DNA of 64,000 nucleotides from Escherichia coli. Its GTDB lineage: Bacteria > Pseudomonadota > Gammaproteobacteria > Enterobacterales > Enterobacteriaceae. Within the stretch, counting starts at the first letter, position 1. Each line of letters starts with the position of its first letter. The notes under the pieces were generated by a model that was not told where the DNA came from, ran no database searches, and was given only the letters and a program-made list of their open reading frames with translations. A program made the position numbers and the translations under genes. Below are positions 16,182-16,943 of the stretch, in pieces. Where the stretch lies: assembly GCF_048403405.1 (NCBI RefSeq), contig NZ_CP183135.1; one strand, given 5' to 3'.

Positions 16182-16943
16182 ATGCGCAAGGGTAAAATTA
16201 TTGTTGCATCAATGATGGTGCTTTGTGTCCTTATTTTTGTTGCGGCGGCGGCATGGTTTATGCTGTTCCAGGGAGAAATGACGGAGCCGACAGAGGAGGA
16301 AAAACAGGCGGCAATTTTACACGCTGCGGGCCTGATGAAATCAGAGACCCAGGATAAAAAATCAGTCGAAACGCTCTATCATCGTTATATTATTCAACGC
16401 CATGTTAATTTAGATTCCGGCGAACTGGTGGCTGGCAGCAGCGCGGACACCGCGCGGCAGAAGTGTGAAAAACTTGCCCCTGAACGCGACCCAGCGCAGG
16501 TTCGTCAGCGCTGTACGGTGGCGGATGTGTTCTTTGTGAAAGATAAAAATAATGAAATTCAGCAGGTTATCATTCCAGTTACCGGTAAGGGTGCGAAATC
16601 CATGATGCATGCGTTTCTTGCTCTGGGGCTGGACGGTCGTACGGTGAGAAATCTGTATTATTATCAGCAACGGGAAACGCCGTTTCTGGGGGCTAGGGTG
16701 GAAGACGCCAACTGGCGCAAACAGTGGCCAGGGAAACGATTATTAGATAACAGCGGACATCCTGCATTGAAAATAGTACAGGATAAACCTGAACATGCCG
16801 ATGAATATACCGTTGACGGTATTTCCGGTGCGACGTTGACATCAACCGGCGTTGAGAAAAGTATTAACTACTGGATGGGGCCGCAGGGATATGGTCAATT
16901 CTTACAGCGTCTTGCCAGCGATCGAAATAACCTTAATCTTTGA
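16182..16943 (+). CDS. membrane-anchored periplasmic FMN-binding-domain protein (NqrC/RnfG-like fold)
   Basis: N-terminal TM helix (IIVASMMVLCVLIFVAAAAWFMLF) and a DGISGATLTS motif typical of covalently flavinylated FMN-bind domains. Confidence 0.55.
   Translation: MRKGKIIVASMMVLCVLIFVAAAAWFMLFQGEMTEPTEEEKQAAILHAAGLMKSETQDKKSVETLYHRYIIQRHVNLDSGELVAGSSADTARQKCEKLAPERDPAQVRQRCTVADVFFVKDKNNEIQQVIIPVTGKGAKSMMHAFLALGLDGRTVRNLYYYQQRETPFLGARVEDANWRKQWPGKRLLDNSGHPALKIVQDKPEHADEYTVDGISGATLTSTGVEKSINYWMGPQGYGQFLQRLASDRNNLNL

Follow-up and report, generated by a model that had tools for sequence, protein, structure and literature searches.

An NqrC paralogue encoded directly upstream of fetMP on Escherichia coli IncF plasmids: a putative accessory flavoprotein of iron uptake

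Why should a plasmid of Escherichia coli, a species without the Na+-translocating NADH:quinone reductase (Na+-NQR), carry a gene annotated as subunit C of that enzyme directly 5′ of the iron importer genes fetMP? The gene in question (16182-16943, + strand; 253 aa) lies in a stretch of 64,000 nucleotides (NCBI RefSeq assembly GCF_048403405.1, contig NZ_CP183135.1), referred to here as the window, which belongs to a multireplicon IncF plasmid of E. coli; it is the same coding sequence (CDS) as that called by the Prokaryotic Genome Annotation Pipeline (PGAP) in identical plasmids. The sequence-only reading of the window, made without database searches, had taken the product for a membrane-anchored protein that binds flavin mononucleotide (FMN), and had proposed it as a candidate periplasmic electron carrier or ferric reductase feeding Fe2+ to the permease. 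The answer favoured here, with about even confidence, is that the protein is a diverged paralogue of NqrC which now serves FetMP as an accessory periplasmic flavin electron carrier.

The fet-linked protein is a full-length NqrC paralogue with an N-terminal membrane helix. The start of translation at ATG 16182 is backed by an AGGGA ribosome-binding site and by the N-terminus MRKGK, which is present in all orthologues; a longer, mechanically called open reading frame (ORF) would begin at GTG 16128. The Pfam domain FMN_bind (PF04205) was found at residues 140-231 (E=9e-11), and two NCBIfam models of NqrC were matched end to end, NF003747 with 388.5 bits (cut-off 336) and TIGR01938 with 182 bits (cut-off 144). 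The solved NqrC of Vibrio cholerae (7xk3_C) was aligned over residues 3-245 (E=5.7e-49). An AlphaFold2 (AF2) model was obtained with a predicted local distance difference test score (pLDDT) of 83.7 and a predicted template modelling score (pTM) of 0.79; by Foldseek it was superposed on crystalline NqrC (4u9s) with template modelling (TM) scores of 0.75/0.86 and a root-mean-square deviation of 2.6 Å, and matched to 7xk3_C with a probability of 1.0. NqrC of V. cholerae and V. harveyi (PDB 4U9S, 4XA7 and 7XK3 chain C) is of equal length and likewise consists of an N-terminal transmembrane helix and a periplasmic FMN_bind domain; identity to the fet-linked protein is 38-41%, and the motifs DG[IL]SGATLTS and ETPxLG are held in common.

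The architecture proposed by the sequence-only reading, one N-terminal transmembrane helix followed by an FMN-binding domain, was thus borne out by the Pfam match and by the AF2 model, in which residues 2-32 form a helix. The membrane anchor itself was placed at residues 6-29, directly after MRKGK (16197-16268, + strand), from the sequence, the AF2 helix and the alignment to the transmembrane helix of NqrC. Homology and the positive-inside N-terminus both suggest that this anchor leaves the NqrC-fold domain facing the periplasm, like that of NqrC itself. The flavinylation motif DGISGATLTS, which the earlier reading had pointed out, is present at 16815-16844 (+ strand; Thr218 codon 16833-16835), and pairs with the DGLSGATLTS of V. 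cholerae NqrC, which bears the flavinylated Thr225.

None of the remaining Na+-NQR machinery accompanies the gene. In tblastn searches of the 64-kb window with queries from a true operon, no match was obtained for NqrA, B, D, E, F or M; the NqrC query alone gave a match, which was the nqrC-like gene itself (38.8% identity). Enterobacterial nqrA-D DNA (3.8 kb) was found in 0 of 5,426 complete E. coli genomes, and no nqr gene adjoined the nqrC-like gene in the 15 related loci with flank data (Sodalis locus excluded). The nearest true NqrC found, from Yokenella (38-43% identity depending on the method), is encoded inside an nqrABCDEF-nqrM operon; NqrC in general is encoded in nqrABCDEF, whereas the fet-linked gene always stands beside fetM. 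Plasmid homologues from Rhodobacterales (30-35% identity) were considered as further orphans and rejected; they belong to complete Nqr-like operons with their own ApbE and are not iron-linked. Since neither another Nqr subunit in the window nor nqr operon DNA in the 5,426 genomes was found, the label "Na+-NQR subunit C" given by PGAP misleads.

The name is given by the model. A true operon-encoded NqrC (P0089) scores 260 with NF003747, below the cut-off of 336; for the other members of the fet-linked clade, defined as homologues at 46% identity or more with genomic context confirmed for the sampled loci only, NF003747 is the best model, yet they too stay below its cut-off. This 'equivalog' appears to have been seeded on the fet-linked plasmid protein. 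The database name is blind to genomic context, and the consequence is a systematic annotation problem, in which more than 800 E. coli plasmids are credited with a subunit of Na+-NQR, an enzyme that the species lacks.

The neighbourhood points to iron uptake instead. As the sequence-only reading had stated, the gene lies directly upstream of fetM (17290-19176, + strand; alternative GTG start 17230), which encodes an FTR1-family permease with a long N-terminal domain. It is followed, on the same strand, by fetP (19217-19744), encoding a P19 periplasmic iron-binding protein (PF10634 in orthologues), by flsD (19848-21227), encoding a membrane protein of the Campylobacter jejuni FetA type with FtrD-like/DUF2318 and YHS domains and CxxC motifs, by flsA, flsB and flsC (21230-24333; MacB/FtsX-type permeases at 21230-22513 and 22503-23633, ATPase at 23638-24333), and by flsT (24320-24805), encoding a TlpA/ResA-like periplasmic thioredoxin-fold protein with a CGGC motif. 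An scsC remnant and an intact gene for an scsD-like thiol-disulfide oxidoreductase (15222-15945, + strand) lie upstream, as neighbours outside the unit. In NZ_CP029113 the annotated order is IS1, an scsD-like 'protein disulfide oxidoreductase', the nqrC-like CDS, an FTR1-family protein and an 'iron transporter' (P19), then an 'Fe-S-containing protein', two ABC permeases, an ATPase, a TlpA-family protein and a hypothetical protein.

A peptide-pattern scan of one genome per species yielded 11 loci (Citrobacter spp., Phytobacter, two Enterobacter and Superficieibacter), in all of which the nqrC-like gene is followed by fetM, fetP, flsD, two permease genes and an ATPase gene. Five further loci, reached through more distant homologues (47-56% identity), had the same arrangement without exception; they include two Klebsiella-like metagenome contigs, one frameshifted genome and Sodalis glossinidius, in which the cluster is degraded. 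In sum, all 16 related loci, which represent at least seven genera, have the gene directly 5′ of fetM; two of them are degraded or carry a frameshift. The genes scsC and scsD stand upstream only in the Citrobacter loci and the plasmid copies (an identical copy, also with scs upstream, was met on a contig of a C. koseri assembly); the Phytobacter, Enterobacter, Superficieibacter and Klebsiella-like loci have other upstream neighbours and no scs genes. The choice between fetMP and the scs genes, which the earlier reading had left to a neighbourhood analysis, accordingly falls to fetMP: the gene belongs with fetMP because fetM is directly downstream in every locus and scs is upstream only in Citrobacter and its plasmid relatives.

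The segment is widespread among E. coli plasmids. The 10 kb around the gene are 100% identical to many E. coli plasmids, and at least 80% of this stretch occurs in 814 PLSDB records. The nqrC-like gene and fetMP were each matched in 829 of the 5,426 complete E. coli genomes (835 records), almost always on plasmids and at identities of at least 99%; in PLSDB, 829 plasmids carry the gene at this identity, among them pUTI89. ST131 plasmids are among the carriers.

The sequence signals suggest that the nqrC-like gene is transcribed separately, ahead of the Fur-controlled promoter of fetM. After the scsD-like gene lies a terminator-like hairpin with a T-run (15950-15979, + strand), which is kept in the Citrobacter loci. 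The motif TTGCAA-N14-TGg-CATATC (16077-16105, + strand), conserved in the Citrobacter, Phytobacter and Enterobacter EA-1 loci, is probably the gene's own promoter and is not a Fur box; it was recognised from the alignment alone and was not flagged by the consensus promoter scan, which returned nothing convincing 5′ of the gene. Behind the stop codon a stable hairpin (16974-17015, + strand) is probably the gene's own terminator; the fold of 16944-17040 has a free energy of −33.6 kcal/mol (z=−4.6), and clear stem and T-run terminators are found at the equivalent site in Phytobacter and Superficieibacter. A promoter-like site for fetM with overlapping Fur boxes, conserved among the loci, was located by consensus match 3′ of the nqrC-like gene (17183-17216, + strand). 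A separate Fur box candidate spotted by eye at about 16090, GATAATGG, gave no score and was discarded.

The Fur box of fetM matches the consensus at 14-15 of 19 positions in the window and at 18 of 19 in the Citrobacter orthologues. At 17192-17216 the site in the window is 4 nt shorter than in the Citrobacter orthologues (AAAAGAT----ATGATAATAATTATC versus GATAATGATAATAATTATC). This loss, together with the drop in the match, might loosen Fur repression of the plasmid copy.

Residue by residue, 70 members of the clade were set against 30 sequences of true or other NqrC. The threonine of SGAT (Thr218) is present in 69/70 clade members and in 30/30 true NqrC; G216, A217, T220, E165, T166, P167, L169 and G170 are kept across the clade, in which the motif follows the pattern D-G-[IL]-[ST]-G-A-T-[LM]-T. 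Thr218, G216, A217, T220 and ETPxLG are invariant or nearly so despite sequence divergence of about 50%. Pairwise dN/dS (ratio of nonsynonymous to synonymous substitution rates) was 0.08-0.18 for the nqrC-like gene, 0.05-0.085 for fetM and 0.01-0.05 for fetP, values that are rough, as dS is close to saturation; judged by these ratios, the clade is under purifying selection.

Other positions set the clade apart from true NqrC. Two cysteines, Cys95 (16464-16466) and Cys111 (16512-16514), delimit a segment at 16464-16514 (+ strand); they are found in 68/70 and 69/70 clade members, respectively, and no periplasmic cysteine occurs among the 30 comparison NqrC sequences. Both fall in short strands predicted by AF2 (95-97 and 109-111). 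Positions 17, 19 and 26 of the transmembrane helix are fixed differently in the clade and in true NqrC, and the loop 85-95 is shortened relative to NqrC.

If the preferred reading is right, the gene would have left Na+-NQR and become an optional partner of FetMP-Fls in one enterobacterial lineage and in the IncF plasmids that captured it. The N-terminal helix would hold the protein in the inner membrane so that its NqrC-fold domain faces the periplasm, a host chromosomal FMN transferase (Ftp/ApbE) would attach FMN to Thr218, and the flavin would act as a one-electron carrier, as in NqrC, and reduce either Fe(III) or the metal site of FetP; iron would thereby reach FetM in a form usable by the permease. 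Candidate donors are FlsD, with its periplasmic CxxC motifs, FlsT, possibly via Cys95/Cys111, and the host's Rsx/Nqr membrane subunits. Transcription would be independent of the Fur-controlled fetM promoter, and the protein would improve or extend the system rather than being essential to it. FetMP is considered to need a supply of redox power in the periplasm, and the model of the field invokes 'reducing power' from the downstream genes, naming no carrier (PMC10783030). In other lineages, FMN-binding proteins, thioredoxins or cytochromes c are attached to this core cluster. The ferric-reductase direction seems likelier than the reverse, although it is not established.

Covalent flavinylation by the host chromosomal Ftp/ApbE is plausible but unproven. 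The sequence-only reading had remarked that no ApbE-type flavin transferase is encoded nearby, and this holds for the whole window, in which a tblastn search with E. coli Ftp/ApbE returned noise (best E=0.97); it is not a problem, however, as ftp/apbE (b2214) is encoded on the chromosome of E. coli K-12. The E. coli enzyme, Ftp_Ec, flavinylates RnfG in vitro (PMC4767422). RnfG, or RsxG in E. coli, is a homologous membrane-anchored periplasmic FMN_bind subunit flavinylated on the threonine of SGAT; RsxG, which is the validated substrate of E. coli Ftp in vitro, differs from the fet-linked protein in that it is only 22% identical, keeps the conserved lysine of the family and is encoded within rsxABCDGE.

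Redox partners of FTR1-type importers, such as FtrB/FtrD of the Bordetella/Brucella FtrABCD system, EfeO/EfeB of EfeUOB and yeast Fet3, are encoded beside the permease and are needed to change the oxidation state of iron. They differ from the protein described here in that they use unrelated folds and cofactors (cupredoxin, ferredoxin-like, haem peroxidase, multicopper oxidase), they mostly oxidise Fe(II), and none is a covalent flavoprotein. Flavoproteins have been described beside other importers of this kind. In a comparison of 33 species, an FMN-binding protein was the seventh gene of the cluster in Actinobacteria, Firmicutes, Spirochaetes and Synergistetes, and a thioredoxin took this place in Proteobacteria; both were suggested to supply reduction potential for ferric iron (Liu 2018, PMC6083913). 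That set includes one plasmid each of E. coli and K. pneumoniae as well as C. koseri, and the comparison described runs from the fetM homologue downstream (PMC6083913). In a second survey, 260 P19 clusters with an FMN-binding gene were found, 'mostly in Gram-positive bacteria', and many Gram-negative clusters had a thioredoxin-like gene instead (Méheust 2021, PMC8238504).

The sequence-only reading had not been aware that such a partner was an established part of FetMP systems. On this point it has to be corrected: FMN-binding genes in P19/FTR1 clusters are published from bioinformatic surveys, with the same suggestion of ferric reduction (Liu 2018, PMC6083913; Méheust 2021, PMC8238504), and the concept is therefore already known. 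Those proteins are likewise extracytosolic, carry the flavinylation motif and are encoded beside FTR1, P19, DUF2318/FtrD-like and ABC transporter genes. They occupy the seventh slot in place of the thioredoxin, whereas here the gene lies 5′ of fetM and the thioredoxin gene (24320-24805) is still present; the enterobacterial gene is also separately transcribed by its signals and of full-length NqrC origin, and is set apart from the Gram-positive partners as these are described. What is new here is the full-length NqrC origin, the upstream position with its own probable transcript, the co-existence with the thioredoxin and the altered pocket. The nqrC-like gene is not discussed in the FetMP papers examined on the E. 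coli and Salmonella system, and nqrC and fetM occur together in no paper of the searchable literature. A preprint uses the plasmid gene as a source-tracking marker for wastewater, 'W_nqrC', in which its function is not discussed.

Several results weigh against a flavin carrier in the service of FetMP. One is that the system can do without the gene: fetMP-fls clusters lacking an nqrC-like gene were found in Atlantibacter, Pectobacterium cacticida, Avibacterium and Pseudaeromonas (FetP 79-93% identical), and because these four other genera lack it, the gene is accessory rather than core. In Salmonella, a 5,566-bp fetMP-flsDA fragment has been deleted and cloned, the cloned fragment confers phenotypes, and fetM was taken as the first gene of the system (PMC7285068); from the coordinates of the window, a fragment of 5,566 bp is too short to hold the nqrC-like gene as well. 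Published work agrees with the gene being non-essential. No Fur box of at least 12/19 was found 5′ of the nqrC-like gene in the window, nor any in Citrobacter; in the Klebsiella-like loci, a 17/19 Fur box does stand directly 5′ of it, which would speak for regulation by iron in that lineage. For comparison, 23 positions with at least 16/19 were counted in 448 kb of locus sequence. The gene also evolves 2-3 times faster than fetM and fetP: in 9 of the 11 genome loci, identity to the window copy was 49-76% for the nqrC-like protein, 81-92% for FetM and 90-97% for FetP, ranges that leave out two loci, the C. koseri copy, which is identical and plasmid-like, and the Enterobacter EA-1 assembly, which is frameshifted.

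The Atlantibacter cluster (L020/L021, 12585-12881) has, after the TlpA-like gene, a gene for a small c-type cytochrome and no nqrC-like gene, which is another sign of lineages swapping the periplasmic redox carrier of the importer.

Further objections come from the flavin pocket. In the column of the conserved lysine of NqrC/RnfG (V. harveyi Lys211, Shewanella oneidensis Lys207), the alignment places Gln200 (16779-16781, + strand); this glutamine is shared by 67/70 members of the clade, all 30 true NqrC have Lys or Arg in its place, and E. coli RsxG has Lys. The exchange K207A in S. oneidensis NqrC left no flavinylation in vitro. Because this lysine is glutamine throughout the clade, flavinylation cannot simply be assumed. 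Leu149-Trp150 of the V. harveyi NqrC flavin pocket is replaced by Ala138-Lys139 (16593-16598, + strand; 69/70 each), so that Leu149, Trp150 and Lys211 of NqrC correspond to Ala, Lys and Gln in the fet-linked protein. The replaced residues are called absolutely conserved or pocket-lining in the structural papers. The pocket motif ETPGLG appears as ETPFLG (residues 165-170; 16674-16691, + strand), in which every residue is retained except the middle Gly of true NqrC, which is F, L or M in the clade. At position 172 the clade has Arg or Lys, versus an acidic or neutral residue in true NqrC. Together with the cysteine pair and the altered helix positions, these are consistent changes under selection rather than signs of decay; they point to a new partner and to a retuned, or possibly lost, flavin site.

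The preferred reading, an accessory flavin carrier for FetMP, can be sharpened into a thiol-to-flavin-to-iron adaptor, a proposal that we consider doubtful in this specific form. On this view, the periplasmic reductant missing from enterobacterial FetMP would be this protein, a covalent flavoprotein derived from NqrC, in which the altered pocket (the lysine moved from position 200 to 139, and the extra Arg172) retunes the flavin and the pair Cys95/Cys111 converts the two-electron thiol chemistry of FlsT/FlsD so that Fe(III) or FetP is reduced one electron at a time. If this were true, such an adaptor would be carried on plasmids in about 15% of sequenced E. coli.

The main rival, by reason of the Lys-to-Gln change, is an NqrC fold without flavin: the clade would have lost ApbE-dependent flavinylation and would serve FetMP as a scaffold or chaperone of FetP/FetM, as a binder of anionic iron chelates in a positively charged pocket, or as a thiol-disulfide relay through Cys95/Cys111. 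In its favour are the glutamine at the flavinylation lysine, the loss of Leu149 and Trp150, the fixed basic residues Lys139 and Arg172 and a cysteine pair that true NqrC lacks; moreover, apo-NqrC binds free FMN very weakly. It is nevertheless unlikely in our judgement. The retention of D-G-[IL]-[ST]-G-A-T-[LM]-T with Thr218, and of the flavin-contacting Thr166, Leu169 and Gly170, is hard to explain without a flavin, and Lys139 in the pocket loop could conceivably stand in for the lost lysine.

Electrons might also run the other way, in that the flavoprotein would be the electron sink of an oxidase-permease, as in Fet3-Ftr1, EfeUOB and FtrABCD; Fe(II) would be oxidised at FetP/FetM and the electron passed via the flavin to the membrane. 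Yeast FTR1-family permeases and the FtrABCD models couple iron oxidation to transport, and the cluster encodes an 'FtrD-like' membrane protein. NqrC-type FMN, however, is a low-potential one-electron couple and a poor acceptor of electrons from Fe(II) at neutral pH. For C. jejuni an oxidation/reduction-based mechanism has been argued, with FetE and FetF as possible oxidases (PMC10783030), whereas both surveys of FMN-binding partners favour reduction (Liu 2018, PMC6083913; Méheust 2021, PMC8238504). On balance, the reversed flow is distinctly improbable.

Still less is to be said for a spare respiratory subunit that docks on the host's Nqr (Citrobacter, Klebsiella) or Rsx/Rnf (E. coli) in place of NqrC or RsxG, either with no role in iron uptake or with these complexes serving as an electron tap only. 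The full NqrC architecture including the transmembrane helix is retained, the NCBIfam equivalog cut-offs for NqrC are passed and rsxABCDGE is present in E. coli; against this, in the sampled loci the gene is always beside fetM and never beside nqr or rnf, E. coli has no nqr operon, and the differences from true NqrC at helix positions 17, 19 and 26 and at several pocket positions speak for a different partner. We hold this explanation to be quite remote.

That the gene belongs to the upstream scs genes (copper/disulfide stress) and is adjacent to fetMP by accident, or is a non-functional hitch-hiker on the mobile segment, is very improbable: the scsC fragment and scsD directly 5′ in the window and in Citrobacter, the faster evolution relative to the fet neighbours and the want of an upstream Fur box in the window speak for it, but membership with scs was rejected on synteny and on the conserved terminator between scsD and the gene, the sampled synteny (nqrC-like-fetM pairs without scs in Phytobacter, Enterobacter, Superficieibacter and Klebsiella-like loci) largely refutes the linkage, and the intact ORF, its dN/dS and the Fur box 5′ of the gene in the Klebsiella-like loci tell against a passive passenger.

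The accessory carrier proposed here would bear on the question of how FetMP/P19-FTR1 importers deal with iron redox chemistry, and it adds a candidate redox protein to the version of the system that is studied in E. coli and Salmonella. As the gene is on very common clinical plasmids, its deletion and the flavinylation of its product are easy to test and of clinical relevance. The clade-wide loss of an 'essential' lysine is, besides, a natural test of the substrate requirements of ApbE/Ftp.

The remainder of the window yielded some further observations. At 14131-15449 an IS1 element, which cut scsC, abuts the remnant of that gene, and next to it stands an intact scsD (15439-15945). From this arrangement, the scs-nqrC-fetMP-fls segment would have been captured together with IS1 from a chromosome of Citrobacter type, in which the genes stand in the same order. 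The fls region ends in a truncated gene for a glucose-1-phosphatase/histidine acid phosphatase (25437-26180; profile positions 1-217 of 413), which is followed by insertion sequence (IS) elements; this truncated gene corresponds to the 'flsF' of the Salmonella paper.

Other iron-related genes were found at a distance. A DUF4198-family gene adjoins the gene for a TonB-dependent receptor of the haem/haemoglobin type (37873-40035, − strand), the ORF of which spans profile positions 182-677 only and is thus truncated or frameshifted; DUF4198 is a frequent partner of PepSY-like/DUF2271/ApbE flavinylation clusters (Méheust 2021, PMC8238504). At 49830-53279 and 56548-62299, sitABCD-like genes and aerobactin-type (iucA/iucD-like) genes were identified; the top Fur box of the window (17/19, 56550-56568) is found where the iucA-like ORF begins. 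By its gene content, the plasmid carries at least three iron-uptake systems. The region 9159-14080 we take to be a Tn10-type remnant, with tetR (9823-10449, − strand), tetA (10480-11733, + strand), accessory regulator-like genes and an IS10-like transposase ORF (12953-14080, − strand).

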